A stretch of DNA of 64,000 nt from a bacterium (GTDB taxonomy: Bacteria > Patescibacteriota > Patescibacteriia > HK-STAS-PATE-3), in assembly GCA_043800725.1 (NCBI GenBank), contig JAZDMR010000015.1, positions 4,065 to 68,064 on the forward strand. Direction: 5' to 3'. Of this stretch, positions 19,639 to 64,000 are shown in pieces. Within the stretch, counting starts at the first letter, position 1. The number at the start of each line of letters is the position of its first letter. The notes under the pieces were generated by a model. It was not told the DNA's origin and did not search any database. It was given only the letters and a program-made list of their open reading frames with translations. Position numbers and translations under genes: made by a program.

Positions 19639-19641
19639 TAT

Positions 19642-20287: not shown

Positions 20288-20292
20288 TAAAA

Positions 20293-45870: not shown

Positions 45871-46946
45871 GAGTGTTATTTATAACTCGCAAATACCCGC
45901 CCAGGATCGGGGGTATGGAGTTGTTTAGTTTTGAGCTTTATCGTCACCTGACTTTGGATAAAGAGTTGGTGGCCAGTTCACAGGGCAAGGCCATTGAAAT
46001 ATTGTGGCTGGCGCCTTGGCTGTTTTTTCGAAGCTGGGTTAAGGCGCCCAAATTTGATATAATTTATTTGGCTGACGGAGTTCTGGCTCCGATTGGTTGG
46101 CTGCTAAAAAAACTTACTCGGCGGCCGGTGGTAGCCACAGTGCACGGTTTGGAGTTGACTTTTAAATTTCCCGGATATCAAGGTTTGATTAAATGGAGCT
46201 TAGCCAAGCTGGATAAAGTCGTCTGTGTCAGTGAAAATAGTTTAAAATTAGCTAAAGAATCAGGCCTTAAACCTGATCGATTGGTAAAAATACCCAACGG
46301 AATAAGCATTAATACGAACCGGAAAAAAGTCACGCGGCAGGATTTTTCTGACTACCTGGGCCGGGAAACCAAGGAAGCCTTTGTCATGCTGACCATTGGC
46401 CGGCAAGTGAAGAGAAAGGGGATTGAGTGGTTTATTCGGGAAGTTTGTCCGCGTTTAAGTTTTTCTTGGCTTTATTGCCTGGTAGGTCAGGGCCCAGAGA
46501 CAAAAGCCATTAACCAGGCGATACAAGAGACAGGCGCCCAGGACTCGATTATTCAGCTGGGACAGGTATCTGAATCGGATAAAGATTTGTTGCTAGACAC
46601 ATCAGACTGCTTTGTGATGCCCAATATCAAGGTGCCCAACGACGTCGAAGGTTTCGGCTTGGTCGCTCTGGAAGCCGCTGGTCATGGTTTGTCCGTTCTA
46701 GCAAGTCGTCTGGAGGGGATAAGAGATGCAATTCATCATAATAAAAACGGACTAATTATCTCTCCTGAAAAAGCAGATGAGTGGTTAAAGGAATTGGTAA
46801 ATTTATTTAACCATCCCAATATTAAAAAAGATCTTGGCGTTAAAGCCAAAGAATATACTATTAATAATTTTCAATGGCCAAATATCAGATCAGCCTACGA
46901 AAGAGTATTTATACGTAAAACTAAAAAGAATGACAATGAAGCGTGA
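45867..46946 (+). CDS. GT4-family glycosyltransferase (GT-B fold)
   Basis: C-terminal EX7E-type motif NDVEGFGLVALEAAGHGLSVLASRLEGIRD. 359 aa. Confidence 0.6.
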   Translation: MRVLFITRKYPPRIGGMELFSFELYRHLTLDKELVASSQGKAIEILWLAPWLFFRSWVKAPKFDIIYLADGVLAPIGWLLKKLTRRPVVATVHGLELTFKFPGYQGLIKWSLAKLDKVVCVSENSLKLAKESGLKPDRLVKIPNGISINTNRKKVTRQDFSDYLGRETKEAFVMLTIGRQVKRKGIEWFIREVCPRLSFSWLYCLVGQGPETKAINQAIQETGAQDSIIQLGQVSESDKDLLLDTSDCFVMPNIKVPNDVEGFGLVALEAAGHGLSVLASRLEGIRDAIHHNKNGLIISPEKADEWLKELVNLFNHPNIKKDLGVKAKEYTINNFQWPNIRSAYERVFIRKTKKNDNEA

Positions 46947-48915
46947 ACAATCGTATTCACCCGTAATATTAGAGGACATTTTATTATCTGGAGTTCTGGT
47001 TTTTCTGACAATTCTAGGTGTGGCAATTTATTTGGGAATATTCGGACATTTCTCAGTCAGCCTGTTAACAGGCCTGGCTGGTTTGACCGCACTGGGCTGG
47101 TTGATATGTTGGCTTTGGAGGATAAAGAGGAGGGGTTTTCAAATCAGCCGGAACGAATTAATAGCACTGGCTGTTATTTTACTAATAATCGTTATCACGG
47201 GTATTTTTCATCAGGAAATGCCGCGTAATCGTGACAATGCCGGCTTTATATCAGCGGCCGCCGCGCTTGCTGATCACGGATCGCTAGCCTTTGAGGATGT
47301 TATAACACGACCGTATCATCCATTTAGGTCGATCGACGGAAATACCTTTACTTCCCAATTTTTACCGGGCTACATTTCTTTTCTGGCCTGGCCGTATGGT
47401 TTATCCGGACTGTCCGCGCTTCAGTGGGCCAATGCTTTATTATTGGGATTAAGCAGTCTGGCTTTATATTATGTATTTCGGAGACTGAGGTCAGGGCAGG
47501 GAAGCTTATGGCCAATCCTTTTTTATGTCACCTTATACACGACCGTCTGGTTCAGCCGAGGGACTTATTCGGAAAATCTTTTCATTCTGATTATGCTGGC
47601 TGGGAGCGGTCTAATGCTAAAAGCCTGGCAAAACAAAACGGCTGCTAGCTCGTTTTGGAGTATTTTTATTTTTTCCTTTGCATCTCTGGTAAGAAGCGAA
47701 GGTATGATTTATTTTCTGGTTGCCCTGATAGTGAATCTGGTGGTAGTTTACCGTTTCCGGAATAGTTGTAACTGGACTCAGTTGCCTGCCTGGCTAGGGA
47801 CATTAGGCAGTCTAGTTGTTTTATTTTTTTACGGTCAGCGTCTTGGTATTGATTATTTTGACTATGCTTATCGCAACCTGACAAGCTCCCTGCATTATTT
47901 TATCGAGCCGGAAGGAGCGGTGTTTATAGCTCTAGTCATCATACTGGCAGCTTTTTTATTATGGCGCAGAAAAAGTTATGGAGCCCTTAGCCTATCTGTT
48001 CAGAAGAAAATCACGATTGCCACCGCAGTGATTGCGGGACTGGCTGCGATTGTTATCTGGGGGTATGTGCTAGGCCAGGGTTATATTGAATGGCGCTACT
48101 TTAAGCTGCATTATGTTTTGGATAATATTGTACGTTACGGATTGGTAACTTATTTTATCCTGATTATCATCGGATTTTATAATTCCCAATATCGGATACC
48201 TGCCATACTTCTGATAATCGTGTTTGCGCCGTCTTTTATTTTCTTTTTTAATCCAAATATTGCTATTGATCAGCCCTGGTTTATGAGGCGTTTTTACGGC
48301 GGCATCATTCCTCTTTTAATTTTGCTGGGAAGCGTGGCAATAGTCCATATCCAATCGCGATACCGGCGCAATATTACGCTAGGTCTACTGGTGATAATAA
48401 TTAATATTAGTACCGCGGCTCCGATCTTGTTTTATAAAGAGCATAAAGGGATGAATATACATTTAAACGATTTTACTCAGCGTTTTACTGCCAATGATCT
48501 TATTTTAATGGATCCTGGCTGGCACTGGCAGCAATGGGGCTATAATCTGCATTATGTAAACGGATTGGATATTTTACCCAATGCTGATGGCTTTACTGAG
48601 CAGGAATTGCAGAAATTGGTTAATCAATACCAGCGGGTCTTTGTCATGGTGGAGCGTGGTCATCAGCCGAGCGCATATTATCCTCTTGAGCGACTGACTC
48701 AAGTCAGTACTTGGCAGCTTCAATACAAAGAACTTGTCCCAACTATGTGGACCAATGACTATATCAACGAGAATAAAGAGGCATTAAGTGTTCCATTATT
48801 ACGAAGCTTCCAGAGAAATAGCCCCCCTAGAGTGATAGAGACCAGAAATGAAGATTATATTATTTATCAGGTAACAGACACTAGTGATTTGCGCCTGAGC
48901 TTACCTTCAACTTAA
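46930..48915 (+). CDS. Polytopic membrane protein, GT-C-like (ArnT/PMT/oligosaccharyltransferase-like) candidate glycosyltransferase
   Basis: About 660 aa with 12 or more TM helices and a periplasmic-loop acidic/Arg-rich segment near the first TM pair (HQEMPRNRDNAG). Its size and topology resemble GT-C enzymes. Start set at the ATG at 46930, a 17-nt overlap with the upstream gene. Confidence 0.35.
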   Translation: MTMKREQSYSPVILEDILLSGVLVFLTILGVAIYLGIFGHFSVSLLTGLAGLTALGWLICWLWRIKRRGFQISRNELIALAVILLIIVITGIFHQEMPRNRDNAGFISAAAALADHGSLAFEDVITRPYHPFRSIDGNTFTSQFLPGYISFLAWPYGLSGLSALQWANALLLGLSSLALYYVFRRLRSGQGSLWPILFYVTLYTTVWFSRGTYSENLFILIMLAGSGLMLKAWQNKTAASSFWSIFIFSFASLVRSEGMIYFLVALIVNLVVVYRFRNSCNWTQLPAWLGTLGSLVVLFFYGQRLGIDYFDYAYRNLTSSLHYFIEPEGAVFIALVIILAAFLLWRRKSYGALSLSVQKKITIATAVIAGLAAIVIWGYVLGQGYIEWRYFKLHYVLDNIVRYGLVTYFILIIIGFYNSQYRIPAILLIIVFAPSFIFFFNPNIAIDQPWFMRRFYGGIIPLLILLGSVAIVHIQSRYRRNITLGLLVIIINISTAAPILFYKEHKGMNIHLNDFTQRFTANDLILMDPGWHWQQWGYNLHYVNGLDILPNADGFTEQELQKLVNQYQRVFVMVERGHQPSAYYPLERLTQVSTWQLQYKELVPTMWTNDYINENKEALSVPLLRSFQRNSPPRVIETRNEDYIIYQVTDTSDLRLSLPST

Positions 48916-52205: not shown

Positions 52206-53756
52206 CTAAAGTTGTGTTGGAGTAATTTTATTCCGTCGGAATAGTATGCGAACTACCCCGATAAGCTCATTCATTCGGAAGACATACGACAGTAATAGGT
52301 AGGTGGAGATTGCCACCAGGCTAATGCCGATGATTTCCCAGAAAACAGTAACTTCCGTGAAAAGACGACTGGCCCACCAGGTCAATCCGGAAGAAAAAAG
52401 TCCCACAATGAGCATTTTAACAAATGGCAGAAAATCTCTGGTTTTCCACCCAGCAATAAGTTTTAAAATAATTACAGCAAAAAGCAGGGCTGTCAACAGC
52501 GAACCGATCGAGGCTCCCAGAGCTATTCCTAAATAGCCTAGCGATGGAATAAGCAAAAGGTTGACGATAATATTGACAGTCGCTCCGAAAACACCTACCA
52601 AGACAACTGTTTTTATTCGCTGCAGAGCATAAAGAGTATTCGATAGCAAAGCGCCCAGCGTAGCTCCGAATAAAAATCCCAGATTATACTGCAACGCGCT
52701 AGCTGTAGCTATGCTGGCAGAATGTGAAAATTCACCGTGTTCAAAAAGCAGCTGGATAATGGGCAGGGCTGCAAAATTAACAATAATAATAATTGGGATA
52801 ATAGAATAGATTGCCAGTCGGACACCCAGGAGTATTTGAGCACGCAGTCTGCTCAGGTCGCTCTGAGCACTGGCCGCGGATAGGTCCGGGAAGAGTGCGG
52901 TAGCGATAGTGGTTCCTATCAGTCCGATCGGAACCATGACCACTAGTCGGCTGAGCGCAACATAGGTTACGCTTCCGGTTTCAAGCCAGGCGGCCATGTA
53001 CTGGTCGATTACCGTTACGGATTTATAGATCAGAGCGCCGATTATAAGCGGAAGGAAAAAGCGGAAAAATTTTCTAGCCTTAGGATCGCGAAAAGACACA
53101 GTAAATGCATAGCGCAGTCTGCCGGTCTTGATTAAGTAGCCCAGCACTATCAGAAAAGCCGCCAAACCACTTATGGTCAGGCCGTAAGCAGGTGCTAAAA
53201 TTCCGATTGACGAGGATAGGATTAGCAACAGCACAAAGTAGAGCAGTTTTTGCAAAAAGATACTTAACGAAGCAATAAAAAACTTTTTTTGGGCATAAAG
53301 AACACTCAATCCAATGCTCATCACTCCCGAGAAGGCAATAAACGGAAGAACAACCTGGAGTATCTGCCGGACAAGGTTCTGGAATTCCGGAGAACGGTTG
53401 GGTAAAGTCAGGGGCACGATCCACCAGGCAGTGGCAATTGTTATGATTACCAGTACGGAAAGACCGGCTGCAAAAATATTAAGAATATTCGATGTTAGCT
53501 GATGGTGAGAATTATCATCTCGCGCTACCTGAAGTTCGGTATAGAGGGGGATATAGGATTTGTGAACTGTTGTAATGAGGACTGTAACGATCCAGACCGG
53601 TATGGCGGTAGCGAGTAAGAAGGCGTCCATTGGTTCGGTGTTGCCGAATTTATTTGCCAGCACTGCCCGGACGCCGTATTCTAGAATAAAACCGAATACC
53701 GTAAATAAAAAAATAATAAAAGAGGCTTTGAGGAGATTGCGTAATGAAAAACTCAT
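52206..53756 (-). CDS. MOP-superfamily flippase, MurJ/MviN-like
   Basis: 516 aa with about 14 TM. The N-terminal pattern ...GVRAVLANKFGNTEPMDAFLLATAIP... resembles the MurJ N-terminus (ARIFGAG..TDAF.VAF.LP). Confidence 0.5.
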   Translation of the reverse strand: MSFSLRNLLKASFIIFLFTVFGFILEYGVRAVLANKFGNTEPMDAFLLATAIPVWIVTVLITTVHKSYIPLYTELQVARDDNSHHQLTSNILNIFAAGLSVLVIITIATAWWIVPLTLPNRSPEFQNLVRQILQVVLPFIAFSGVMSIGLSVLYAQKKFFIASLSIFLQKLLYFVLLLILSSSIGILAPAYGLTISGLAAFLIVLGYLIKTGRLRYAFTVSFRDPKARKFFRFFLPLIIGALIYKSVTVIDQYMAAWLETGSVTYVALSRLVVMVPIGLIGTTIATALFPDLSAASAQSDLSRLRAQILLGVRLAIYSIIPIIIIVNFAALPIIQLLFEHGEFSHSASIATASALQYNLGFLFGATLGALLSNTLYALQRIKTVVLVGVFGATVNIIVNLLLIPSLGYLGIALGASIGSLLTALLFAVIILKLIAGWKTRDFLPFVKMLIVGLFSSGLTWWASRLFTEVTVFWEIIGISLVAISTYLLLSYVFRMNELIGVVRILFRRNKITPTQL

Positions 53757-53847: not shown

Positions 53848-56820
53848 TTATTTAATAGGCTTAAAAAATACATCCTGTATCCAGAGAGGACATTCCTGCA
53901 AATCCGAACCTTCTAGCAGCTGGCTGTTTTCATCAAACAAGACCATTTGCAATTCATTAGAACCGGACGGGATAGTAATAGGCAGGCTGACTGATTGAAA
54001 ACTAGACCAATTAATAGTTAGGGATGAAATTGTCTCTCCGTTTAATAATATCACCGCCCGGCGGTAAGCGTCAGGACAGGTATAAGTACTAAAATTCAGT
54101 TCTCCCGACAGCTGTTCTGACTGTGGCGAATCAAGACTAAGCGAAGCGTAGTTTTTAGTTTTTCTCTTTTGTGATGCCTGACCCTTATTTTCCAGGATAT
54201 CCCAGTTTTTGCTCAAACGAATAATTAGAGGAGTATCTTCGTCCGAAGACGGCGGCAGCTGGTAGTAGTCCCACTCGTCAGTCGTGGAAACCACCATTGA
54301 CCCGACTGTTGATATTAAGTATTTGTTCCAGGCCAAAGCTTCCTCAGGTTCAAGCAGGTTTTTATGCACTAATACCTGCTGGATATTTTCCCGGTCTGCC
54401 AGGTAGCGCAAGCTGGACTGATAATAATTTTCTTCAATAATATCGTGATATGAGCGCAGCGAGCCAAAGGTGTTTGCGGCATTTCGGGATTCGATCAGCA
54501 AGGGCCAGCGAAGAATTACCTTAGGCTCAAAAATCGAGTTTCCGGCAAATATCTCCTGGGGATTTACAATGTTATAGGCTGAATATTCTGAACCGAATAG
54601 CGGCACTTGCAAAGTGGTATTTTGACCAGCGTACTCAGACAGAAGGCTGCTGATATCGTCTTGATTGTTTGATATTGGCAAAGCTTCGATTTCCGAGATA
54701 AACACCGGCGGATCAGGTTCTTGACTCAGGTCAAGCTGTTCGATTCGTTGTCCCAGAAATTGCAAAGTGTTAGCTTCCATACTGGATAATGGTACATTAA
54801 CCTGGTATTGTCGCGGCTGATCATCCACTAGAAACTGGGCTAGGATTTGCTCATCCTGCAGGATTTGAAGATTACGTATCGAGCCTAAGGCAGCCTTGGC
54901 TATAAATCTCAGGTTAAGACTGTTTTGCTGGTTAATATTATTAATTATCAATTCGCTTTGTTGGCCAGTAAGCTGATATTGACGCTCGTCATCAATTTCC
55001 GTGCCGTTCCATTCGCCGGATTGGACCAAAATTGGCGCTGAATAGTCTTGCTCGGATAGTTTATAAGCAATTAAGTCAGAGTCTTGGTAAATTTCTTCTG
55101 TATGCACATAGTTTCTTAGGAAATTCCTGATCCGGATAAAGTCATCCAGCTCTATTTCGTCATCAGCAGAGCCCAGGTAGTTTTTATGAAGGATAATGTA
55201 ACGTACGTCATAGTATTGGAGAACGCCGGTATTGGCGTCCGCGTTAGCTAGGCTGATCGGAAGAGAGGTCACTATGTCGCTGCCCCGGGGGAAGCTGTAA
55301 AGAAGGGATTTTAAAATTGGGATAGAAATATTCCTGACGTAGAGCGGGTTTTCAGGATTGAATCGGGCGGGTTGAAAAAAATTAATCATCTTCTTACCGT
55401 GAATTGATCGATAATATTGTGATTTGGCCGCAGATCGGTAGTTGGTTGAGCTCGGAATCTCGAGGATAGCGAAATCACCAGGTTCCTGACGCAGGGAATT
55501 GTAAAAATGTGGATAATCAAGAGATGTTGTGGGATAGGGTAGAGCGAAAAATTCAAAGATGATAAAACCGGACAGCAGTATTACGAGTATGTGCTGGCCG
55601 TGGAGAGCCAGTCGGAAACGTTGGACCAGATAAACAAACCCATAGGCAGCGGCAACTGCGAAACACATCATCGAAATTACAGCTATACGGTCAACGGATC
55701 TAATATTGTTAAAGTACGGTAGAAAGTGATGAAGGAGCAGATAGGGTAGGGGTATTTTTGGTTCGACAACCCCACCAAAGTGCAAAAAGGGGCCAATGGA
55801 CAGAATGTAAAAACTAAAAGCGCCAACCGCCCAAAAGATGCTGTCGCGTGACTTTCGGTAGATCAGTACAAGTATGGCAAGACTCAGCACCACGATACCT
55901 ACATAGGCGGAGTGTTCGAATTCATTTCCGGTAAAAGAATTTCGAACATCAGCAAATAACGGACCAATCAGCGTATGAGTAAAAGGAGGGGTAAGAAGGC
56001 TTAATGCGTCATTGGAATATGCTATGGCCGATTTTATTCCCGGATTGAGGTAGTTGTTTTCAGATGAAGCAATTTTAAGAAACGACGCGGATATTATTAT
56101 GAAAATAACTGCGATAACACCGATTCCTATTGCGCAGTTTCGAATGAACGCCAGATTACGCCAGAAACTCGGATATTTACGCAGATACCACCATAACAGA
56201 GGGGGTAGAAAAAGTAAGTAAAACGCTATAAAATGTATTTCGTTGACCGCTAGAAAAATAAAAAAAATAGCGGCTCCGAATACATAGCGTAATTTTTGAA
56301 ATCGAATAGCTTTAAGGATAAACAGGGTCGTCAGTGGTATCCATTCAATATGCGTTGAGCCGCGAAAGCCCATTCCCCAGATGAAATGAATAGGCGCAAA
56401 TCCATAGATTAACCCGGCCATAAAGGACGCATAGGTAATCAACCGTTCGGTCACTTTCTCTTTTGTTGTTGCGAAAGTTTCTCTGATAAGAAATCGCGTC
56501 AAGGCAAAGGCTCCGTACGAGGCGGCGATAAAGGAAAAAAGCCAATAGAGATTGTATGCGAGAGTGACGTCAACAACAGTGTTGAGATAGCTGACAATTG
56601 ATACAGTATCAATGCGTACGTGAGTGATGATTTCTTGGATGCTGCCCCAGAAACCGAGAGCCTTCAGCTCCTCACTGAAATGAATTACGTCGGCCACCGT
56701 TTGATGGGAATCGCTTCCTAGCCCGGCAATTTCCGAGTTGATGTTGAGAATGACGGGATACGTCAGCAACAGAGTCAAAACAGTGTAGGCGGCAATGATA
56801 ACGAGTGTTTTTTTCAACAA
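53848..56820 (-). CDS. Large polytopic membrane protein (990 aa): N-terminal domain of about 13 TM plus a roughly 540-aa extracytoplasmic C-terminal domain; GT-C/YfhO-like candidate
   Basis: Its topology resembles YfhO/PMT/ArnT-type lipid-linked-sugar transferases or polymerases. No motif-level confirmation is possible by eye. Confidence 0.3.
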   Translation of the reverse strand: MLKKTLVIIAAYTVLTLLLTYPVILNINSEIAGLGSDSHQTVADVIHFSEELKALGFWGSIQEIITHVRIDTVSIVSYLNTVVDVTLAYNLYWLFSFIAASYGAFALTRFLIRETFATTKEKVTERLITYASFMAGLIYGFAPIHFIWGMGFRGSTHIEWIPLTTLFILKAIRFQKLRYVFGAAIFFIFLAVNEIHFIAFYLLFLPPLLWWYLRKYPSFWRNLAFIRNCAIGIGVIAVIFIIISASFLKIASSENNYLNPGIKSAIAYSNDALSLLTPPFTHTLIGPLFADVRNSFTGNEFEHSAYVGIVVLSLAILVLIYRKSRDSIFWAVGAFSFYILSIGPFLHFGGVVEPKIPLPYLLLHHFLPYFNNIRSVDRIAVISMMCFAVAAAYGFVYLVQRFRLALHGQHILVILLSGFIIFEFFALPYPTTSLDYPHFYNSLRQEPGDFAILEIPSSTNYRSAAKSQYYRSIHGKKMINFFQPARFNPENPLYVRNISIPILKSLLYSFPRGSDIVTSLPISLANADANTGVLQYYDVRYIILHKNYLGSADDEIELDDFIRIRNFLRNYVHTEEIYQDSDLIAYKLSEQDYSAPILVQSGEWNGTEIDDERQYQLTGQQSELIINNINQQNSLNLRFIAKAALGSIRNLQILQDEQILAQFLVDDQPRQYQVNVPLSSMEANTLQFLGQRIEQLDLSQEPDPPVFISEIEALPISNNQDDISSLLSEYAGQNTTLQVPLFGSEYSAYNIVNPQEIFAGNSIFEPKVILRWPLLIESRNAANTFGSLRSYHDIIEENYYQSSLRYLADRENIQQVLVHKNLLEPEEALAWNKYLISTVGSMVVSTTDEWDYYQLPPSSDEDTPLIIRLSKNWDILENKGQASQKRKTKNYASLSLDSPQSEQLSGELNFSTYTCPDAYRRAVILLNGETISSLTINWSSFQSVSLPITIPSGSNELQMVLFDENSQLLEGSDLQECPLWIQDVFFKPIK

Positions 56821-57112: not shown

Positions 57113-59287
57113 ATGTTATTTCTCAGAAAGATGCTTTATAGTCTATCGTGGGTGGGTATAGTCGCAGCCTCTCTTTTGATATTATTGAGATTTATTTTAT
57201 TTAGGGAAATTGATTGGTTAGGAAAAATAGATGTTATCCTAACATTACTTATTCTGATTGATTTCTTGATCCTAGTTACCATTTTGAATGAACCGAAACT
57301 AAAGGTTGAAAAATTTTGGCTTTGGGTATTAATTATCTTATGGTTTTATAATATAGTTTGGGGGGTCTCGTTAAAATACTTCCCATATCCTGGTATCCAA
57401 GAATTTAACGCTACTTTATATTATAGCGTTATTTTATTAGGCTTAATGTCTTTACGATTCGTAAGAAAAAAAATTTATAATTACTTTACATTATTAATAA
57501 AAGAAAACATAAAAATAGAAAATGAAAATAGCAAAGAAAAAATTATTGAAATGGCTCGTCAAAATGAATTTACGAATAAATTTAAAACAGTTAATAAAAT
57601 ACCGTTTATAAGGAACATAGCAAGTTTTTTTTATAAGCAAGGCAATTATTATTCTCTCGGTTTAATTATTGCAGTTATTGTTTTAATAGCTCTAAGCCTT
57701 CCTTTATTTGGTAGGTTTTTAAATGATGATGAATTTCATTTATTTAATGTCGGCAAGGGCATTGTTGAGACGCATCAATGTATTGCCTGGAATTTTTTAC
57801 AAGACGCTCCAGGATATAGCTATCCCAACGACTGTTTGATTTCTAATGTAATTTCAGTATTTTTTTTAATTTTTGGAACCTCACTTTTTAGCGCAAAGAT
57901 TCCTTTTTTAATTTTTTCAGTTATAAATGTATTCTTGTTATATTTTTTAGGAAAGAAGATATTTAATAAAAACATTGCTCTTGCTTTAATATTGTTCTAT
58001 TGTACAAATCCCTTTTTTGTATATCATGCCGGCTATATCAGAATATATGCTATGCTTATTACTTTTTCTTTGTTGGTTTTTATATATATTTTAAAATTAT
58101 TTGAAAAAAATAAGGATAATATTTATTCAAAGACCATTTTGTATACTATTATTCTAATATCATTATTATTTATTGGTTACAAGCTTAGAATAACATTTAT
58201 CACTATTGTGCCGGGTACATTATTACTAATTTCTATTAAAGTAATCAGTTTGATAAAAAACAAGAGTTTAAAAACATATCTCTTTTGTGGTCTTTTGACG
58301 GGAATTATAGCTGTGCCCACACTAATGAGCTATTATCAGTCAAGATTTAGTGGATTTTATGATTACAGCGGTAGATTTGATTGGCACACTTTTAACATAA
58401 CTCTTTTAAATTTTGATCCCCAAATAGCAAAATTATTTTTTTTAGCATTAACCGTGATTTGTTTATTATTCATATTTAAAAAATATATACAAAAAAATAC
58501 GAAACATTCAAAGTGTTTTAGTTTTGAAAGTATAATTTATTTATTAATTTTGTATATATTTATTAATCTTTCCTACGGTTTATTTGTGACCCAGGATAAC
58601 ATGATTCCGCGCTATGCAATATATTTAGTAATTCTTAATATTATTATATTAATACCGGCTATATATATTATTTTATTGCCTCTTGTTAATAAAAAATTAT
58701 CATATTTAATATTAATATTTGTTATAGTTGTTAATAATATTATTTTATGGAAATCAGACACAATTAATGATAAGCTTGGTAGCAAATACAATTACATTGA
58801 TATGTATGATATAACAGGCACAACAAGCCCCACGCGAGCAAAAGAACAATATAAGGTTATGTACGATAAAATTCTTGAAAATATAGAGCCAGAAGATAAC
58901 AAAGTTGCATTAGTAACTGCATTTTTTAACGATCCTCAGTTAGTAGCTTTGGCAAAGTATAAAGATAAAATTGATCTAATTGGAATAGGGGACTACTCTG
59001 GAGCTTACAAATTTGATGATTTACTCCCTGACTATCCTTATAAAGAAATAATGGTTGATAGAGAAAATTATGAAGAACAAGATAACGGTTCCAGACATCC
59101 ATTAAAGAAAGAAGCCCTTGTGGAATTTCAAGGTCAGTATGATAAAATATTTATCACCTGGCCTACAAGAAAAAATTATAAACATGAATACGTATTAGAA
59201 AGTGCCCAGGATCTTGATTTTATCAAAATATCTGGTGAGAATGTCGATCAATCTAATATCGAGATATACTATTACGAGAAAAACTAA
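57113..59287 (+). CDS. Polytopic membrane protein (724 aa, N-terminal about 540 aa TM-rich, soluble C-terminal domain); GT-C-like candidate encoded in a strongly AT-rich island
   Basis: Very low GC. It has many TM helices with Lys/Asn/Ile-rich loops. No family-level motif recognised. Confidence 0.3.
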   Translation: MLFLRKMLYSLSWVGIVAASLLILLRFILFREIDWLGKIDVILTLLILIDFLILVTILNEPKLKVEKFWLWVLIILWFYNIVWGVSLKYFPYPGIQEFNATLYYSVILLGLMSLRFVRKKIYNYFTLLIKENIKIENENSKEKIIEMARQNEFTNKFKTVNKIPFIRNIASFFYKQGNYYSLGLIIAVIVLIALSLPLFGRFLNDDEFHLFNVGKGIVETHQCIAWNFLQDAPGYSYPNDCLISNVISVFFLIFGTSLFSAKIPFLIFSVINVFLLYFLGKKIFNKNIALALILFYCTNPFFVYHAGYIRIYAMLITFSLLVFIYILKLFEKNKDNIYSKTILYTIILISLLFIGYKLRITFITIVPGTLLLISIKVISLIKNKSLKTYLFCGLLTGIIAVPTLMSYYQSRFSGFYDYSGRFDWHTFNITLLNFDPQIAKLFFLALTVICLLFIFKKYIQKNTKHSKCFSFESIIYLLILYIFINLSYGLFVTQDNMIPRYAIYLVILNIIILIPAIYIILLPLVNKKLSYLILIFVIVVNNIILWKSDTINDKLGSKYNYIDMYDITGTTSPTRAKEQYKVMYDKILENIEPEDNKVALVTAFFNDPQLVALAKYKDKIDLIGIGDYSGAYKFDDLLPDYPYKEIMVDRENYEEQDNGSRHPLKKEALVEFQGQYDKIFITWPTRKNYKHEYVLESAQDLDFIKISGENVDQSNIEIYYYEKN

Positions 59288-59334
59288 TTACTCCCTAACC
59301 ATTTTAAGTCAGGTAGAGTTTATTCTGTATAAAC

Positions 59335-60603
59335 TTATCTTTTTAAAAAAGATGGCAGTACCTGTGGTTTAAAAATTAATAAATAGTATATAAAGAAAGC
59401 CATCCAGCTGCTCAACGTTATTGCAACACATATACCGAGAATACCCCATAGATATCCGAAAAGTAATATGAGTAATATTTTCAGTATATCTACAGATATG
59501 CTTTCAATGCTCGTCTCCCTATGTAATAAATGTGATTGAAAAAGCACATCAAATATGTAAGAAACCGCGCTAAACGGGAAAGTTAGAGCTAGTATCATAA
59601 AATATATTTTTGTGATTTGGTAATCTGTCGGGAAAAATAAAGAAATATACCCGTACCCGATTGCTAAAACAATTAGTGTAAAGATAATAGAGATTAAGAA
59701 AAATATTTTTAGCTTGGATTTGATGGATTGTACCAAATCCCCCTTTTTTTGTTTAGCGAAATCCGCATATAATAAAGGATCTATTATTCTTACAACCATA
59801 GCAAATTTATTTCTTAAATTATCAGCCACCGAAAAAGTAGAAAGTGTAGTGTAACCCAAGAATAGCCCTATTATAATTGAGGATATTTTTGTACTCGTTA
59901 TGTTGATTATATTAGCTGGGATCATCTTTAATCCAAATGAAACGCATTTTTTATCGATATTATTTTTTTTGAATTCTGAGAGTAGATGATCTTTTTTGGA
60001 AACATAAATAAACCCTATCCAGCTTAACAGGACCAACGAACCAAATGATGATATAACGAATATTATGATATTATGTGTATAATACGCTGAAGCAAGTGCT
60101 GTTAGATTTACTATTAGACCGATGCTGATTTCCCAAGCGGCTTTTTCTTTGAAACGCTTAGTAGATATTAAATAATTTATAAAACTTGTATTAACAATCT
60201 GGCCGAATATAGCATAGATAAAGACTATGCACAGTAAGATAGCGATTAGACTTGATTGTTGAAGAAAGAAAATGATAATCACAACAAAACCAAAAAGCAT
60301 TACGATCGCTGCTAATCTCAGTCTATAAAAAAAGGCATAAAAAAAAGTACCCTTGAATCCGTTAGCAATGGCTGACTTTACACCATTTGTTATATATGAA
60401 CCAGTGAGAGCCAATACCCAGGTTTCGATAGCTAAGACAAACTGGTACCGTCCATAATCGTCGATAGATAGATTACTTAAAATTATCGGCAAGGTAATCA
60501 TGCTGATCCCTAGCGATACTATCTGCGGGAGAAAAAGAATAACACCACTAGAAAAATATTTTTGCTTCACTTTTAGAATAAATTGAGATATCTCTCTGAA
60601 CAT
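59335..60603 (-). CDS. Wzx-like oligosaccharide flippase (polysaccharide biosynthesis protein, MOP superfamily)
   Basis: 422 aa with about 12 TM. The N-terminal GVILFLPQIVSLGISMITLPIILSNLSIDDYGRYQFVLAIE pattern is typical of Wzx/RfbX proteins. Confidence 0.45.
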   Translation of the reverse strand: MFREISQFILKVKQKYFSSGVILFLPQIVSLGISMITLPIILSNLSIDDYGRYQFVLAIETWVLALTGSYITNGVKSAIANGFKGTFFYAFFYRLRLAAIVMLFGFVVIIIFFLQQSSLIAILLCIVFIYAIFGQIVNTSFINYLISTKRFKEKAAWEISIGLIVNLTALASAYYTHNIIIFVISSFGSLVLLSWIGFIYVSKKDHLLSEFKKNNIDKKCVSFGLKMIPANIINITSTKISSIIIGLFLGYTTLSTFSVADNLRNKFAMVVRIIDPLLYADFAKQKKGDLVQSIKSKLKIFFLISIIFTLIVLAIGYGYISLFFPTDYQITKIYFMILALTFPFSAVSYIFDVLFQSHLLHRETSIESISVDILKILLILLFGYLWGILGICVAITLSSWMAFFIYYLLIFKPQVLPSFLKR

Positions 60604-60604
60604 T

Positions 60605-62104
60605 TTATTTTTTCAAAATGTATATTGTCCTTGTTTTGTTCACACTCCCAATCTTTTCAATATCTGAGAAATATAATTTCGAGAAATGTATAAAATTTGT
60701 ATAATTATATTCTTCAGTCTTTGCCCTTCCCAGAATATTGGTCCATTTTTTGGCCTTAACATCTTTTTCCGAAGGGAACTCAATGATTAAAAACTTTTTA
60801 GTTATTTTGGAAAACGATTCCATAATTGTTTTTAACGATCCGAAATCCTCAGTACGGTGAAATAGATGATGGATTATCCCCATGGCTAATACACAATCAT
60901 ATGAATTGTTTATATCGCTAAATTTTTTGTAGCTAAAAGTACATCCTTCAATGCCTAGGGTATCGATTATTATTTTGCAAGTTTCTATATATTTTTTGTT
61001 GTAATCTATGCCATAACATTTAGTAAACTGGTATTTCAATTTACTCAAAAATACATATAGACCCAGATTAGAACCAATATCCAAGAAGCTGTCTATTTTT
61101 TTTATATCTGCTATTTGGTTCAAAGCCTTATCAACGAGCCTGAATTTTGGTTCAGTATTCCAGAGAGGTTTGGCGTCAATCGACAATGGCGTTATTTGAT
61201 TGTCAGCGATATTATAGTTTTGATAGCCTCTTACCTGCACCTCGTTTTCTTTAGGGAACTTTATAGTGTCGATATGCGCTGATTCTTGAGGCAATTCAAG
61301 GTTGCTATGTTTTAGTAGTTTTTCTATTTCTTGTTTGAGCACTTTCCAGCCAGCTTCAGTCAATAAGTCCGTTTCAGGAGCTGTCGCCCTCCTAATGATA
61401 TCGGTGTAAATAGTATCGTTCATCTCTTTTTGCACAAAATCAATCAATTTATTTAGCTCATCGTCACTGGAATTCTGTGCTGTAGTTGATAATAGAGTGG
61501 TAGTTCTTCTGCCTAAACCATAGTAATAAATGTGTAAAATAAACTGCAGTTTCAGAAAATTATTTTTGGCATAAATAAGGTTTTTTCTTTGTTCTCTGGT
61601 ATTTAAACTATTTTTTTCATTTATCAGCAAAAAAGAATTCCCCCCATAATCTATTAACTTTATCTTTCCGTAATTATTCTCCATATAGTTGCAATGATCG
61701 ACAAAACCAAAATCCCAATAACAGATATTCTTTTTTATTAAATCCATTTCCAAATCACAGATTTGAGTTAAATATTTAATAAAATATTTTGGATCGGTTT
61801 TTGTGTGGTTTAATTTTTCGTAGGGATATATGATAAATTTATCAGAGAATATTTTTAAGCGATACAAATGTTCTGAGTTTACGTTTCTTTTTATAAATTC
61901 CTTGGTTATATCGAGATAACCTTGCCCGAAGACGGAAAGTACTTTTACAACCACGTTCATATTGTCTTTATTGCGACACAAATAAATTCTTCCATCCTTG
62001 CCTTGACCTAATATTTCAACAACCTTATAACTGTTTTTCAGCGTGGCCATCGTTTTAATGTGGTTGTATTTATTACGGATGATTGAATATAGTGTTTTCA
62101 ACAT
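60605..62104 (-). CDS. Bifunctional protein-kinase-like domain + FkbM-type SAM-dependent methyltransferase (WbdD-like glycan-modifying/chain-terminating enzyme candidate)
   Basis: N-terminus: a Gly-rich loop and Lys (ILGQGKDGRIYLCRN...VVVKVL), a catalytic-loop-like DHCNYMENN and a DFG-like LIDYGG. C-terminus: FkbM/class I MTase motif I FLDIGSNLGLYVF and a post-I acidic YGIDYN. Confidence 0.5.
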   Translation of the reverse strand: MLKTLYSIIRNKYNHIKTMATLKNSYKVVEILGQGKDGRIYLCRNKDNMNVVVKVLSVFGQGYLDITKEFIKRNVNSEHLYRLKIFSDKFIIYPYEKLNHTKTDPKYFIKYLTQICDLEMDLIKKNICYWDFGFVDHCNYMENNYGKIKLIDYGGNSFLLINEKNSLNTREQRKNLIYAKNNFLKLQFILHIYYYGLGRRTTTLLSTTAQNSSDDELNKLIDFVQKEMNDTIYTDIIRRATAPETDLLTEAGWKVLKQEIEKLLKHSNLELPQESAHIDTIKFPKENEVQVRGYQNYNIADNQITPLSIDAKPLWNTEPKFRLVDKALNQIADIKKIDSFLDIGSNLGLYVFLSKLKYQFTKCYGIDYNKKYIETCKIIIDTLGIEGCTFSYKKFSDINNSYDCVLAMGIIHHLFHRTEDFGSLKTIMESFSKITKKFLIIEFPSEKDVKAKKWTNILGRAKTEEYNYTNFIHFSKLYFSDIEKIGSVNKTRTIYILKK

Positions 62105-62133
62105 AGGCTTCTATTCTAGCAAAAAACTTAATA

Positions 62134-63189
62134 TTATTTCTTAAATAGTTGTAAATACTGGTCAACGAAAATATCTAGATTGAAAAGTTTTACAGTTTCA
62201 ATGCTTTTGACTGACATTTTGGTGATTTGAGAGTCATTGTCTATCAGATGAGATACTTCTTGGGCCATCTGATCAAAATTTCTATTTTCTACCAAGATAC
62301 CCTGGGCCAGTTTAACGATTTCATTTGTAGCTGAGTTATCATAGGCGACAATTGGTAAGCCGCTAGCCATAGCTTCTACTGTCGTAATACCGAACATTTC
62401 ATGGATTGAGGTAGTTATATAAATCTTCGATTCTGAAAGTAATTGTATTTTTTTGTTTTCAGGAACGTTACCATGGAAGGTGATGTAGTCATCTAGGTAC
62501 AAATTTGAAACAAGTTTCAATGTTTGGTCATAGTACCCTTGCCTAACTGTTTCATAACCACCAATTATATCAAGGTGAATCTTGGGATTTATTTTATGGA
62601 GCCGATAGAACATTTTTATCAAATCGAAGTAGTTTTTTCGGGAGCAGATTCTGCCAATTGTTATTATATTGTATCTTTTGAAGTCGCTTTTTTTATAACG
62701 ATCGATCTGAACCGGATTATAGATAACTTTAATTCTATCAAGATACTTACCGCATAAAGATACCCTCTTAGCATAATGAGAAACGGCCACTAAATTATCG
62801 TAAAGCCATGCTACTACGAATGGTATTCTTTTTATAATCCAATTAGGATATTCCGAAACGCTACCACAGAAGACTAGATTGGTAATTAATTTACTCCTAA
62901 AAATTTTAAAGAAAAAAGTAAGGTAAAAATAGTTCTTATAGGGCTCGAAGACACACAAAATATCAATTTTACATTTGAATAGTATTTTTAAATAATTCTT
63001 CCAGTTTAAATAGTAAACATGAAAATTGTCCTCAAAAGAGTAATTTAACGTCTGATAATCTTGGTGCTCGGCCAATATATAAATTTTGCTGTTTTTATCT
63101 TTTTCAATCAGGCCGGTACCAAGATGTCTCATGATAACGGGTATGCCGCCGTTTATTTTGCTGTATTTATAAAAGAATAGATAATTCAT
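62134..63189 (-). CDS. GT4-family glycosyltransferase
   Basis: HEMFGITTVEAMASGLPIVAYDNSATNEIV (EX7E). 351 aa and AT-rich. Confidence 0.6.
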   Translation of the reverse strand: MNYLFFYKYSKINGGIPVIMRHLGTGLIEKDKNSKIYILAEHQDYQTLNYSFEDNFHVYYLNWKNYLKILFKCKIDILCVFEPYKNYFYLTFFFKIFRSKLITNLVFCGSVSEYPNWIIKRIPFVVAWLYDNLVAVSHYAKRVSLCGKYLDRIKVIYNPVQIDRYKKSDFKRYNIITIGRICSRKNYFDLIKMFYRLHKINPKIHLDIIGGYETVRQGYYDQTLKLVSNLYLDDYITFHGNVPENKKIQLLSESKIYITTSIHEMFGITTVEAMASGLPIVAYDNSATNEIVKLAQGILVENRNFDQMAQEVSHLIDNDSQITKMSVKSIETVKLFNLDIFVDQYLQLFKK

Positions 63190-63929
63190 TGATTGAGCTG
63201 ATTAATCTTGTCCGCTAGCCATTTTTGGTCATGAAAGTGTAAGTCACGGTCGTGTAAAAGAAAACACCCCCTCCTGTCATCTATGAACTCGATATCATTG
63301 AGCTTAACATCTGAGTCTATCATGTATCGGTTGCAGATTATTTTTTTAATATTTGTTTTCTTTAGGGAATTGTATGTTTTAATGCTCCACACATTACCAG
63401 GAGGTACAAATATTGTAATGGGTTTCTCAAAATATTCCTCCAGGATTTTTTGTGATTGAGTGATGTGTTGCTCGTGTACTGTCTGATCTAGATACGGCCA
63501 GAACTCTCTATGAAATTCTCGATTTGAGTAAAGCAGGCGAGGTAAATGTTTACCGACAACACAATGCGTTAAACCATGGTTGGCAATAATAATCTCTCCT
63601 CTCTTAAAAGCGTCTTTTAATACTTTAGCTTGAGCCGAAAACTTTTTATTGAAAGGGATTAAGTTTGATTTTTCATCAACCCATGCGGCGGTTACTGAAA
63701 TAATAGGGACAATTGAATTCCGCTTGAACAGCTCTATTACTTTTTCCCAGGTATCGCTGCTTACTTCTGGATAAGGTCCCCATGTCCTAAATGGCTTGAT
63801 GCGCTTGAAAAACCATAAATTAGCTAGGGGAAAATAAAAATATAGGATTTTGTGCAAATAGAATCTCTTTTTTCCGTATTGATTGAACCGCTTGGTCGAT
63901 GCTCCAACATCATCTATTCTCCAAAGCAT
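63186..63929 (-). CDS. Polysaccharide-deacetylase-like protein (DUF2334-like)
   Basis: An N-terminal RIDDVGAS motif resembles the DUF2334/PgaB-like deacetylase N-terminal DD motif. His-containing segments (ANHGLTHC) are present. 4-nt overlap with the upstream GT4. Confidence 0.35.
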   Translation of the reverse strand: MLWRIDDVGASTKRFNQYGKKRFYLHKILYFYFPLANLWFFKRIKPFRTWGPYPEVSSDTWEKVIELFKRNSIVPIISVTAAWVDEKSNLIPFNKKFSAQAKVLKDAFKRGEIIIANHGLTHCVVGKHLPRLLYSNREFHREFWPYLDQTVHEQHITQSQKILEEYFEKPITIFVPPGNVWSIKTYNSLKKTNIKKIICNRYMIDSDVKLNDIEFIDDRRGCFLLHDRDLHFHDQKWLADKINQLNQ

Positions 63930-64000
63930 ATTTATTTCTTAATACAAATAAAAAGACCCGTATAATAAGCGGAGTTTGTTTTTTTGTCATTGAGAAATAA

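Follow-up and report, generated by a model that had tools for sequence, protein, structure and literature searches.

Gene and locus

The window analysed here, a stretch of 64,000 nucleotides from a CPR/Patescibacteria bacterium, carries on its reverse strand an open reading frame that runs from an ATG to a TAA stop codon (60605-60607) and encodes a protein of 499 amino acids (Table 1). An earlier note on this DNA described the protein as an N-terminal kinase-like domain joined to a C-terminal SAM methyltransferase. This was borne out by the AF2 model (pLDDT 92.6, pTM 0.87): Foldseek matched its N-terminal half (residues 26-270) to protein kinase domains and its C-terminal half (residues 271-499) to class I methyltransferases. 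The motifs quoted in that note are also in place, i.e. GQGKDGRIY at residues 33-41, VVVKVL containing K54, DYG at 152-154 and DIGSNLG at 342-348.

The closest homologue of the protein was found at E = 9.5e-217, and 34 full-length homologues had E values of 7e-52 or lower. An alignment of 33 sequences, 29-66 % identical, contains 34 invariant columns. Judged by these values, the similarity within the family is far above chance. The search for the same fusion in other genomes, which had been proposed earlier, yielded 47 proteins with the kinase-then-methyltransferase layout (profile E down to 1e-197); all 47 two-domain members have this order, and 14 genomic contexts were compared. The fusion is a real two-part enzyme, conserved yet rare, and its carriers include CPR bacteria, an Asgard archaeon, an Elusimicrobia bacterium and a Prochlorococcus single-cell genome.

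The sequence of the N-terminal helix varies among the family members, and the helix may possibly serve in membrane association. No TM-like segments were found in the fusion protein, which fits a cytoplasmic enzyme, located where ATP and SAM are. The AF2 model contains no coiled-coil ruler: the longest helix is that of 24 residues at the N-terminus, and the chain ends with the methyltransferase beta-sheet at residue 499.

The position of the gene between a Wzx flippase and a GT4 gene in a low-GC island was confirmed both for the two neighbours and for the base composition (GC 0.27-0.375 per gene in the island, compared to about 0.41-0.49 in the host). The start codon of the flippase gene lies 1 nt past the stop codon of the fusion gene, and the two genes are probably translationally coupled, as read from the junction. 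The DUF2334 gene is part of the shared cassette, and the PMT_2 gene, convergent with the operon, is also within the low-GC cassette. The 990-aa protein had no Pfam match. It belongs to a CPR family, and its Foldseek matches include AftD, STT3, PglB and EmbC. It is a conserved neighbour of the cassette with host-like GC, syntenic in L003 and L005 (27-32 % identity). The fusion gene is located in a cassette of low GC that is exchanged horizontally; metK is found at 41462-42673. In L003 and L005, cassettes related to this one contain 3-4 additional sugar-type methyltransferases.

Table 1 Features of the fusion gene and its surroundings, with positions in the window (L003 and L005 are compared genomic contexts)
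Feature	Position	Strand	Evidence
Whole gene, kinase-like + WbdD-type methyltransferase fusion	60605..62104	-	ORF, homologues, alignment, AF2
N-terminal helix, residues 2-25, amphipathic, basic, net charge +5	62030..62101	-	DSSP, hydrophobic moment, charge
Protein-kinase-like domain, residues 26-270	61295..62029	-	Foldseek, profile match, conserved residues
Gly-rich loop GxGKDG, residues 33-38			Invariant in family
beta3 Lys, K54	61943-61945	-	Conserved 64/64
Catalytic-loop Asp, D131	61712-61714	-	Conserved 66/66
Catalytic-loop Asn, N139	61688-61690	-	Conserved 66/66
Asp of DYG, D152	61649-61651	-	Conserved 67/67
Beta-rich linker and N-terminal extension of methyltransferase unit, residues 271-316	61157..61294	-	Strands 278-306
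G293-Y294-Q295 in linker (position of Y294)	61223-61225	-	GYQ conserved 137-140/146
Class I SAM methyltransferase core, WbdD-type, residues 317-499	60608..61156	-	Methyltransf_31, hhalign, PDB profile
H412-H413, methyltransferase core	60866-60871	-	
R492, methyltransferase core	60629-60631	-	
Wzx-type flippase (Polysacc_synt, MOP family)	59335..60603	-	Pfam; 68 % identical orthologue at same position in L003
GT4 glycosyltransferase, directly upstream, same operon	62134..63189	-	Glycos_transf_1, E 7e-31; 71 % syntenic orthologue in L003
DUF2334/polysaccharide-deacetylase-like gene, 4-bp overlap with GT4 gene	63186..63929	-	Pfam; 61 % syntenic orthologue in L005
PMT_2-family GT-C membrane glycosyltransferase, 724 aa, ~14 TM-like segments	57113..59287	+	Pfam; 58 % syntenic orthologue in L003
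GT-C-fold membrane protein, 990 aa, C-terminal carbohydrate-binding-like beta domains	53848..56820	-	AF2 pLDDT 83

Kinase-like half

Foldseek aligned the kinase half to the kinase domains of BTK, LCK, Fyn and Hck (E ~3e-8 across ~280 columns), and the kinase profile matched CK2alpha (E 6e-5). Foldseek and residue conservation together reveal a bilobal ePK-like fold with a Gly-rich loop, the beta3 Lys, the catalytic Asp and Asn and an Asp at the DFG position. The structure prediction accordingly agrees with the earlier note in both halves, as the kinase-like fold keeps its Lys and Asp and the C-terminal half has the class I SAM methyltransferase fold. The Pfam Pkinase model gave the fusion only 13.4 bits (cutoff 31.7) and matched just 5 of the 33 members at E <= 0.05, no alphaC Glu is conserved at positions 66-69 of the fusion family, and D131 and N139 are spaced by +8, not as in the canonical D-x4-N catalytic loop. 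The kinase half is therefore an atypical member of the ePK-like superfamily. The APH, Choline_kinase and Kdo HMMs had no match in any of the 33 members.

These same deviations could be taken to mean that the kinase-like half is a dead scaffold or a substrate-binding domain and that the methyltransferase alone is active. However, the Gly-rich loop, K54, D131, N139 and D152 are kept down to ~30 % identity, stand-alone kinase genes included, and such conservation is typical of active kinases and unexpected for pseudokinases, which makes a dead kinase very improbable. As the four residues are conserved in every one of the 64-67 sequences compared at each position, the kinase half is probably active.

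The kinase HMM did not match WbdD or WbdD-like kinase domains, and the profile-profile comparison with the WbdD kinase reached a probability of 26.7 % over 51 columns. On these comparisons, the kinase half represents an ePK-like lineage separate from the WbdD kinase, with only the generic catalytic core in common. The protein had been described as a candidate WbdD-like enzyme with inverted domain order; the kinase-then-methyltransferase order holds, but the protein is not a swapped WbdD, its kinase lineage being independent.

Methyltransferase half

The linker of residues 271-316 belongs to the methyltransferase unit, since the methyltransferase of a split, two-gene version starts at the same element. 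Methyltransf_31 matched the fusion protein with 30.5 bits (cutoff 27), Methyltransf_25 matched all 33 members, and generic class I models (Methyltransf_25/31/12/23/11) were found throughout. The Foldseek matches of this half were MePCE, ChlM, CmoB-like proteins and NodS, with MePCE as the top methyltransferase. The features of a class I, seven-stranded Rossmann-like fold are present, with D342-x-G344-x-x-x-G348 of the glycine-rich motif I and the acidic D367, expected where beta2 ends, being invariant, and K320 and R417 are further residues of the core. The FkbM-type label given earlier to this domain had to be dropped: PF05050 (Methyltransf_21) matched 0 of 33 members at E <= 0.05, and the window protein had no match to it at E <= 0.1. 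The HMM searches proposed earlier thus recovered the class I methyltransferase models, but not Methyltransf_21, APH or Kdo kinase, and Pkinase only below threshold.

When the methyltransferase-only profile was compared with the PDB, four WbdD entries ranked first (E 3.4e-10), ~100-fold ahead of the next match. The hhalign comparison with residues 32-215 of WbdD gave a probability of 95.9 % in local mode and 97.8 % in global mode (199 columns). By sequence, the closest characterised relative of this half is the methyltransferase domain of WbdD. In the alignment Y16, H132, H133 and R203 of WbdD correspond to Y294, H412, H413 and R492 of the fusion, which are invariant in the family, the Y16-Y294 equivalence having low local alignment confidence; the SAM-binding R36 and D82 of WbdD align to the invariant K320 and D367. 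In the set of 146 methyltransferase domains retrieved, all non-gap positions keep H412 (146/146), R492 (141/141) and Y294 (140/140). The fused family has His at position 413, where 83 of the 146 domains have Trp, and the His-His and Arg triad is whole in 44 of 46 fused proteins. In WbdD, the substitutions Y16F, H132A, H133A and R203A abolish methyltransferase activity and leave the kinase activity intact, and R203, H132 and H133 are said to confer the use of a phosphate nucleophile (PMC3482155).

It could be argued that the two halves carry out independent decorations, the kinase phosphorylating the glycan and the methyltransferase O-methylating a sugar hydroxyl as E. coli O8 WbdD does, so that no methyl phosphate is formed. 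Hydroxyl methylation is known from O8-type WbdD and many methyltransferases of glycan clusters, His-His is present also in the non-phosphate methyltransferases NodS and RebM (PMC3482155), and the additional sugar-type methyltransferases in L003 and L005 would favour this reading. On the other hand, R203, H132 and H133 are reported to be missing from O8 WbdD and other sugar methyltransferases (PMC3482155), while R492 is invariant and the fused family conserves Y294, H412 and H413. In addition, this methyltransferase subfamily is obligately paired with a kinase, be it by fusion, as split genes or in methyltransferase-first order, which is hard to square with unrelated reactions. We consider independent decorations unlikely.

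Split version, relatives and genomic contexts

In the two-gene version, a kinase gene is followed by a methyltransferase gene with a 14 bp overlap, the cut being exactly at the domain boundary. The nearest relatives of the methyltransferase half outside the family are MT-Pkinase(-GT2/GT4) proteins (P0076, P0089, P0093 and P0122) and a Sulfotransferase-MT-Pkinase protein (P0077), with profile E values of 1e-28 to 1e-35. They share with the fusion the GYQ, K320, H412 and R492 positions, but have the WbdD-type order, a Pfam-recognisable Pkinase and His-Trp in place of His-His, and are joined to polymerase glycosyltransferases and to TPR or coiled regions. A kinase motif was found downstream of the methyltransferase in 24 of 34 outside relatives. 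The 47 fused proteins, the overlapping split genes in the same order and the relatives with a Pkinase after the methyltransferase argue together that the two halves are functionally linked.

A Wzx-type flippase directly adjoins the fusion gene in 9 of the 14 contexts (the window, L003/4, L005, L006, L010, L011, L012, L020 and L021), or in 10 when the sub-threshold match in L022, a probable tenth, is counted. Wzm/Wzt directly adjoin it in two distant members, L007 and L009, and the Wzt of L009 has a near full-length, sub-threshold match to the cap-reading domain Wzt_C (24.6 bits, cutoff 30.4). In total, 12-13 of the 14 contexts have an exporter of lipid-linked glycan beside the gene or within 3.4 kb of it. 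Among the window proteins scanned there was no Wzm/Wzt (ABC2_membrane, ABC_tran). In L021 the fusion and Wzx pair lies outside any obvious glycan cluster.

The contexts bear on two further readings. A strict WbdD-like terminator, whose methyl-phosphate cap would halt the growth of a polymer made in the cytoplasm and set its modal length, would agree with the homology of the methyltransferase to WbdD and with the two members that adjoin Wzm/Wzt, one of them with the Wzt_C-like domain. However, the fusion has neither a coiled-coil ruler, which is characteristic of all chain terminators (PMC11231755), nor a C-terminal polymerase-recruiting region, and in the window, as in 9-10 of the 14 contexts, its partner is Wzx rather than an ABC transporter; no Wzm/Wzt was seen among the scanned window proteins. 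We regard strict termination as quite improbable.

Slightly less so, but still improbable, is a substrate other than glycan, in which case the enzyme would either phosphorylate proteins, with the methyltransferase in a regulatory role, or act in a small-molecule pathway such as that from ethanolamine via phosphoethanolamine to phosphocholine, which would later be transferred to a glycan. The kinase fold does resemble protein Tyr and Ser/Thr kinases, phosphoethanolamine N-methyltransferases are among the weak PDB matches (E 1.6e-4 to 3e-4), and L021 has its pair apart from glycan genes. Yet the WbdD sugar kinase likewise resembles Src and Lck (PMC3482155), and likeness of fold is therefore no proof of a protein substrate. 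WbdD also scores ~million-fold above the PMT enzymes, models of APH, choline kinase and Kdo kinase match no member, LicC- and LicD-like genes were not found among the window proteins scanned (a subset of the ORFs), and the regular proximity of an exporter speaks for a glycan.

Proposed function

We propose, with a probability of about 0.6, that the fusion is a cytoplasmic enzyme which puts methyl phosphate on a lipid-linked glycan ahead of export. The kinase-like domain would use ATP to phosphorylate a hydroxyl group of a sugar, probably of the terminal residue at the non-reducing end, and the WbdD-type methyltransferase would then methylate this phosphate with SAM to give a methyl-phosphate substituent. 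The co-transcribed Wzx would flip the modified lipid-linked oligosaccharide, and outside the membrane the GT-C enzymes of the locus would take it over. The WbdD-like phospho-methyl modification of the glycan of the locus suggested in the earlier note is thus supported by the methyltransferase homology and the four invariant residues, but capping or termination in the sense of WbdD is not. As the ruler and recruiting tail are absent and the gene is coupled to Wzx, the safer claim is that a lipid-linked oligosaccharide is modified before it is flipped.

A speculative extension, possible though doubtful, is that the adjacent Wzx reads methyl phosphate as a tag meaning 'finished, ready for export'. 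It would then be a counterpart of the WbdD cap/Wzt-CBM checkpoint and a chemically new analogue of TacF's phosphocholine gate, and the same enzyme would serve Wzx in CPR bacteria or Wzm/Wzt in Asgard and Elusimicrobia. CPR bacteria are not known as LPS makers. In such cells the tag may mark the oligosaccharide for en-bloc transfer by the PglB/AftD-like GT-C neighbours.

Methyl-phosphate capping has so far been known only from a few ABC-transporter-dependent O-antigens of Enterobacteria, in which the cap couples chain termination, chain-length control and proof-reading of export. The present family would be at least a third assembly of the same chemistry, combining a WbdD-type phosphate methyltransferase with another kinase lineage. 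It would show that this chemistry can do without a molecular ruler and can reside in a small mobile cassette adjoining an exporter gene, usually that of a Wzx flippase. A function is hereby predicted for proteins annotated as 'hypothetical protein' or as generic 'class I SAM-dependent methyltransferase', and the N-terminal half defines an unannotated kinase family. The system offers a testable handle on the recognition of completed substrates by Wzx flippases and on the nature of the surface glycans in CPR bacteria, and the 499-aa protein is a compact candidate tool for putting methyl phosphate on glycans.

Comparison with known systems

WbdD of E. coli O9a and Klebsiella pneumoniae O3 (PDB 4AZS, 4AZW, 4UW0) is a dual-function methyltransferase-kinase and terminates O-antigen chains. 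Like the fusion, it combines a class I SAM methyltransferase and an ePK-like kinase, structurally nearest to the Src/Tec family in both cases, in one soluble polypeptide of surface-glycan biosynthesis. The two differ in domain order (methyltransferase-kinase in WbdD, kinase-methyltransferase in the fusion), in length (708 compared to 499 aa), in the catalytic loop (HDDVRPWN compared to YWDFGF..N) and in having DFG and DYG, respectively. Unlike WbdD, the fusion is without the coiled-coil ruler, the trimerisation helix and the WbdA-recruiting tail, its host is a CPR bacterium, and it is coupled to Wzx in the window and most contexts, whereas WbdD is coupled to a Wzm/Wzt-CBM transporter.

WbdD and ORF6 of Klebsiella O7 are proven pairs of methyltransferase and kinase that make methyl phosphate with unrelated kinase folds (PMC11231755). 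The N-terminal terminator of K. pneumoniae O7 ORF6 consists of a methyltransferase and an AmiN-like kinase (PMC11231755) and, as proposed here, joins a WbdD-like phosphate methyltransferase to another kinase fold to produce a terminal methyl phosphate. Unlike the fusion, it is methyltransferase-first, its kinase is aminoglycoside-phosphotransferase-like rather than ePK-like, CBM, coiled-coil and GT2 polymerase modules follow, and it depends strictly on an ABC transporter.

The top structural match of the methyltransferase, the 7SK RNA methylphosphate capping enzyme MePCE/Bin3 (PDB 6DCC, TMt 0.62), is an O-methyltransferase acting on phosphate, as proposed for the fusion. However, it acts on RNA, at the gamma-phosphate of a 5' triphosphate, no kinase is associated with it, and its sequence similarity to the methyltransferase half is marginal (E ~1e-3).

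In the TacF/Lic system of Streptococcus pneumoniae, phosphocholine is added to a lipid-linked glycan in the cytoplasm, and a MOP flippase monitors it as a 'gatekeeper' before export (PMC13385700). By functional analogy alone, this is the nearest precedent for a phospho-modifying enzyme coupled to Wzx, the chemistry and the enzymes (LicA, a choline kinase of APH fold, LicC and LicD) being different. The coupling to Wzx sets the fusion apart from every studied methyltransferase-kinase example, in which an ABC transporter is combined with a coiled-coil ruler.

A conserved family of kinase-methyltransferase fusions

The 499-aa open reading frame reported in the earlier note was present, as were all motifs quoted for it: GQGKDGRIY (residues 33-41), VVVKVL with K54, DYG (152-154) and DIGSNLG (342-348). 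The nearest homologue was found at E = 9.5e-217 and 34 full-length homologues of ~500 aa at E <= 7e-52. These homologues, and 34 invariant columns in a 33-member alignment (29-66 % identity), show that the ORF did not arise by chance but belongs to a conserved family of proteins. Exhaustive searching of 1.84 billion representatives with the family profile gave 2203 matches at E <= 1e-3 and 81 at E <= 1e-30. Among 167 fetched proteins there were 47 kinase-then-methyltransferase (MTase) fusions, 20 kinase-only and 99 MTase-only proteins. Eleven of the kinase-only proteins are 325-363 aa long with an N-terminal extension of ~65-90 aa; the other nine (159-294 aa), which do not have the extension, may be partial sequences. 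When one genome per species was scanned with two peptide motifs, the fusion was found in only seven of 185,579 species, a lower bound: two Saccharibacteria, one other Patescibacteria, one Promethearchaeota (Asgard) archaeon, one Prochlorococcus SAG, one Elusimicrobia and one unclassified bacterium.

Features of the window and of loci in other genomes carrying homologues
Locus	Feature	Coordinates	Strand	Remarks
Window	Predicted large surface proteins, clustered	11515-22200 and 36344-39178		1230-aa Big_9/He_PIG Ig-like; 547-aa FG-GAP/fn3; 635-aa Big_5 + Peptidase_C39_2; 944-aa S8 peptidase
Window	metK, SAM synthetase	41462-42673	plus	all three Pfam domains
Window	693-aa protein	46834-48915	plus	~10 TM-like segments; weak PMT_2 match, E 0.009
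Window	114-aa ORF	53080-53424	minus	GTG start; wholly within MurJ gene, other frame
Window	990-aa membrane protein	53848-56820	minus	no Pfam match
Window	Low-GC block	57113-64000		runs past window end
Window	PMT_2-family GT-C gene	57113-59287	plus	convergent with operon
Window	Polysacc_synt (Wzx-type) flippase	59335-60603	minus	Pfam
Window	Fusion ORF	60605-62104	minus	ATG to TAA, 499 aa
Window	GT4 gene	62134-63189	minus	Pfam
L007	ATP sulfurylase, phosphodiesterase-family protein, APS kinase	14206-17362		3-6 kb downstream of fusion
L009	Small soluble methyltransferase	7981-8703		Methyltransf_23, E ~7e-5
L014	Full-length fusion	2550-3959		genome AG-439-L12
L017	Split kinase and MTase	6001-7684		335 aa and 229 aa
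L021	Fusion and Wzx pair	7001-9932
L022	Small soluble methyltransferase	4773-5564		Methyltransf_23, E ~7e-5

Predicted structure

In the AlphaFold2 model, built from the family alignment (mean pLDDT 92.6, pTM 0.87), residues 2-25 form an N-terminal helix, ~26-270 a bilobal alpha/beta domain, 278-306 a small beta-element and ~317-499 a Rossmann-type alpha/beta domain. In Foldseek searches against the PDB, ~280 columns of the N-terminal part matched the protein kinase domains of BTK, LCK, Fyn and Hck (E ~3e-8), and K54 and D131 are present, in line with the proposed eukaryotic-protein-kinase-like fold. The C-terminal part matched class I methyltransferases, the best being MePCE, the methylphosphate capping enzyme of 7SK RNA; ChlM, a CmoB-like enzyme and NodS came next. 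A SAM methyltransferase was thus correctly recognised, also by Pfam, but its assignment as FkbM-type was wrong: Methyltransf_21 was matched by 0 of the 33 members, whereas, among the generic class I families, Methyltransf_25 was matched by 33/33 and the window protein scored 30.5 bits with Methyltransf_31 (cutoff 27). The N-terminal helix is amphipathic and basic (net charge +5) and may hold the enzyme at the membrane; no TM-like segment was found in the protein.

The methyltransferase half resembles that of WbdD

In hhalign comparisons of the family with WbdD, the O-antigen chain terminator (708 aa, from the O9 locus of E. coli HS between wbdA and wzt), the MTase halves alone align, locally between family positions 327-515 and WbdD 32-215 (probability 95.9 %, E 5.5e-9) and globally over 199 columns (97.8 %, E 4.7e-12). 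When the whole PDB was searched with a profile built from the MTase halves alone, four WbdD entries were best (E 3.4-4.6e-10); the next match, YcgJ (3.3e-8), was ~100-fold weaker, and phosphoethanolamine N-methyltransferases and MePCE were ~million-fold weaker than WbdD.

The WbdD variants Y16F, H132A, H133A and R203A keep acceptor phosphorylation and lose MTase activity, while R36 and D82 bind SAM (PMC3482155). In the window protein R36 corresponds to K320, D82 to D367, H132/H133 to H412/H413, R203 to R492 and Y16 to Y294, the last inside a low-confidence stretch of the alignment. All six residues are invariant in the 33-member alignment, and in 146 related MTase domains H412 is conserved in 146/146, R492 in 141/141, Y294 in 140/140 and K320 in 139/141 non-gap positions. 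Of 46 fused proteins, 44 have the complete His-His and Arg triad. His-His or Tyr-Tyr is found at this site in NodS and RebM too (PMC3482155), so that Arg is the more discriminating residue. By these sequence comparisons the METHYLTRANSFERASE half is WbdD-type.

The nearest MTase relatives outside the family have the WbdD order, MTase then Pkinase (P0076, P0089, P0093, P0122 and P0077), and GT2/GT4 polymerase modules, TPRs or a sulfotransferase are often part of the same protein. These MTase-first relatives have His-Trp in place of His-His, and the HxDxxxxN...DxG motif was found in 24 of the 34 with enough downstream sequence. P0077 has a Sulfotransferase-MTase-Pkinase architecture.

The kinase half belongs to a separate lineage

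Among the fused and stand-alone homologues K54 (64/64), D131 (66/66), N139 (66/66) and D152 (67/67) are conserved and the GxGKDG loop is kept in every one, which argues for an active kinase. The domain is nevertheless atypical: the family sequences have no conserved alphaC Glu, the catalytic loop reads Y-W-D-F-G-F-x-x-x-N, with D to N at +8, not +5, and the metal-binding motif is DYGG. The kinase half matched no Pfam or NCBIfam model above threshold; Pkinase gave 13.4 bits with the window protein (threshold 31.7) and matched 5/33 members at E <= 0.05, and APH, choline-kinase and Kdo-kinase models matched no member in the Pfam scan of 33. The family profile did reach CK2alpha (E = 6e-5).

Neither WbdD nor the Pkinase-type domains of proteins like it were matched by the kinase-half HMM. 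In a profile-profile comparison, 24 WbdD-type kinase domains aligned with this half in the alphaE, catalytic-loop and DFG core only, at 26.7 % probability. The suggestion of a WbdD-like enzyme with inverted domain order therefore holds for the MTase half and for the kinase-first order, but not for the kinase, which is of a separate lineage; the fusion is not WbdD with its domains swapped. In our reading, a predicted WbdD-type phosphate methyltransferase has been combined with an ePK-like kinase of another kind. Klebsiella O7 ORF6 is an experimentally studied case of such an exchange of modules: there, a WbdD-like MTase and an AmiN-like kinase make terminal methyl phosphate (PMC11231755).

A split version was found in locus L017, where the end of a stand-alone kinase gene (P0078) and the start of the MTase gene that follows it overlap by 14 bp. 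The kinase-then-MTase order is kept, the break lies immediately ahead of the 'ExADI...GYQNY' element, and no catalytic motif is lost (kinase HMM 3e-39, MTase HMM 2e-48). Such a Rosetta-stone relationship between fused and split forms points to two halves that belong together. The 68-kb L017 contig has many small genes without Pfam match and also CHAP, CBM60, GT8 and mannose-1-P guanylyltransferase-like genes; it could be a phage or a CPR genome.

Operon, cassette and host

The flanking Wzx flippase and GT4 gene were confirmed with Pfam. One nucleotide separates the fusion stop from the Wzx ATG, the GT4 gene ends 29 nt ahead of the fusion, and a DUF2334/deacetylase gene overlaps the GT4 gene by 4 bp. 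DUF2334, GT4, fusion and Wzx form one operon, in which Wzx is probably translationally coupled to the fusion. The AT-rich island was also borne out, with per-gene GC of 0.27-0.375 compared to 0.41-0.49 in neighbouring host genes (host ~0.44). The DUF2334-GT4-fusion-Wzx-PMT_2 block is syntenic with L003/L004 (58-71 % amino-acid identity; locus GC 0.287) and L005 (41-61 %). This synteny and the low GC fit a horizontally exchanged variable glycan cassette beside conserved genes, which is what the block looks like.

The window is chromosomal, with PBP2, Mur ligase, DnaX, XseA, tRNA-Gln and MurJ; named DnaX relatives are all from Patescibacteria/CPR (<=49 % identity). CPR bacteria are generally considered to have no outer membrane and no LPS; if so, 'O-antigen' is the wrong frame for this locus. 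The locus (~39.7-64 kb) contains GT2 and GT4 enzymes, sugar-nucleotide epimerases/dehydratases, UDP-glucose dehydrogenase, metK, MurJ and three GT-C-type membrane proteins: the PMT_2, 693-aa and 990-aa proteins. The 990-aa protein, with relatives mainly in CPR (Candidatus Kerfeldbacteria), was modelled by AlphaFold2 (pLDDT 83) with a GT-C fold matching AftD, STT3, PglB and EmbC, and with beta domains at the C-terminus that look like carbohydrate-binding modules; in L003 and L005 it is conserved beside the cassette, at just 27-32 % identity. The 693-aa protein may be a third GT-C-type enzyme, or a polymerase or ligase, of the locus. The metK gene lies between two sugar-nucleotide epimerase/dehydratase genes, overlapping the downstream one by 4 bp. 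With host-like GC and ~18 kb from the fusion it may simply be a housekeeping copy; its co-transcription with a methylation-rich glycan pathway is worth noting. The clustered surface proteins are plausible targets of the glycosylation machinery. The ORF inside MurJ is almost certainly spurious.

Exporter linkage

Fourteen distinct contexts were compared, the window included. Polysacc_synt/Wzx directly adjoins the fusion in nine (window, L003/4, L005, L006, L010, L011, L012, L020 and L021), a probable adjacent Wzx occurs in L022 (sub-threshold E 0.003, 243/274 model positions), and in L008 Wzx is 3.4 kb away. The ABC transporter Wzm/Wzt directly adjoins it in L007 (Asgard archaeon) and L009 (Elusimicrobia MAG); the L009 Wzt has a C-terminal Wzt_C match that is sub-threshold (24.6 bits vs 30.4) but extends over 127/143 positions. 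Only L014, a Prochlorococcus single-cell genome, had no exporter near the fusion; its member (37 % identity) adjoins a GT41-like gene. Exporter adjacency comes in at least four different gene arrangements and so was not inherited as one syntenic block. The two ABC-linked members do not group with each other (31 % identity), and the Asgard protein is 42 % identical to the window protein, as close as Wzx-linked CPR members; with the ABC-linked members so scattered, the enzyme appears indifferent to export route. In L021 the fusion and Wzx stand by themselves among redoxin, MMPL, DoxX and GDPD genes, and the nearest 7 kb hold no glycosyltransferase; this isolation suggests that the pair can move or function as a unit.

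ATP sulfurylase and APS kinase genes lie near the L007 fusion and, separately, P0077 has a sulfotransferase domain; at the end of a glycan, sulfation may be an alternative to methyl-phosphorylation, or the two may be combined. Small methyltransferases with a similar N-terminal motif (AV.YIL.QRT) lie within ~2 kb of the fusion in L022 and L009, two unrelated high-GC genomes.

Proposed function and comparison with known systems

Without a TM-like segment and dependent on ATP and SAM, the fusion protein would have to work in the cytoplasm. The most economical reading is that its kinase half would phosphorylate a hydroxyl of a lipid-linked glycan, its MTase half would methylate that phosphate, the coupled Wzx would flip the product, and the GT-C-type proteins would use it outside the membrane, acting on polyprenol-linked donors. 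In a Wzx/Wzy pathway, methyl phosphate could decorate every repeat unit, or the group could block polymerisation at the acceptor hydroxyl and so define a short oligosaccharide. Every characterised terminator has a coiled-coil ruler (PMC11231755); because the fusion has none, we do not take it for a chain-length regulator in the WbdD sense. Persistent exporter adjacency, the Wzt_C-like domain of L009 and the known case of TacF, the MOP flippase by which phosphocholine content is checked ahead of export (PMC13385700), suggest methyl phosphate as an export or completion signal, which we consider rather unlikely.

In the searchable literature, of which coverage is incomplete, we found no description of this fusion family or of methyl phosphate in Wzx-dependent glycans. 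Most probably the fusion protein acts as the catalytic part of WbdD does. WbdD is the only glycan phosphate methyltransferase with a characterised structure, and the MTase half of the fusion is built like it. MTase homology and the phosphate-methylation residues are shared with WbdD. The fusion differs in its reversed domain order, a kinase that is not orthologous, the missing coiled-coil ruler and, in the window, the lack of coupling to an ABC transporter; because of these four differences we keep it outside the WbdD family. It is the third way of pairing a kinase with an MTase for predicted glycan methyl-phosphorylation, here with the kinase in front, without a ruler and, in most contexts, linked to Wzx.
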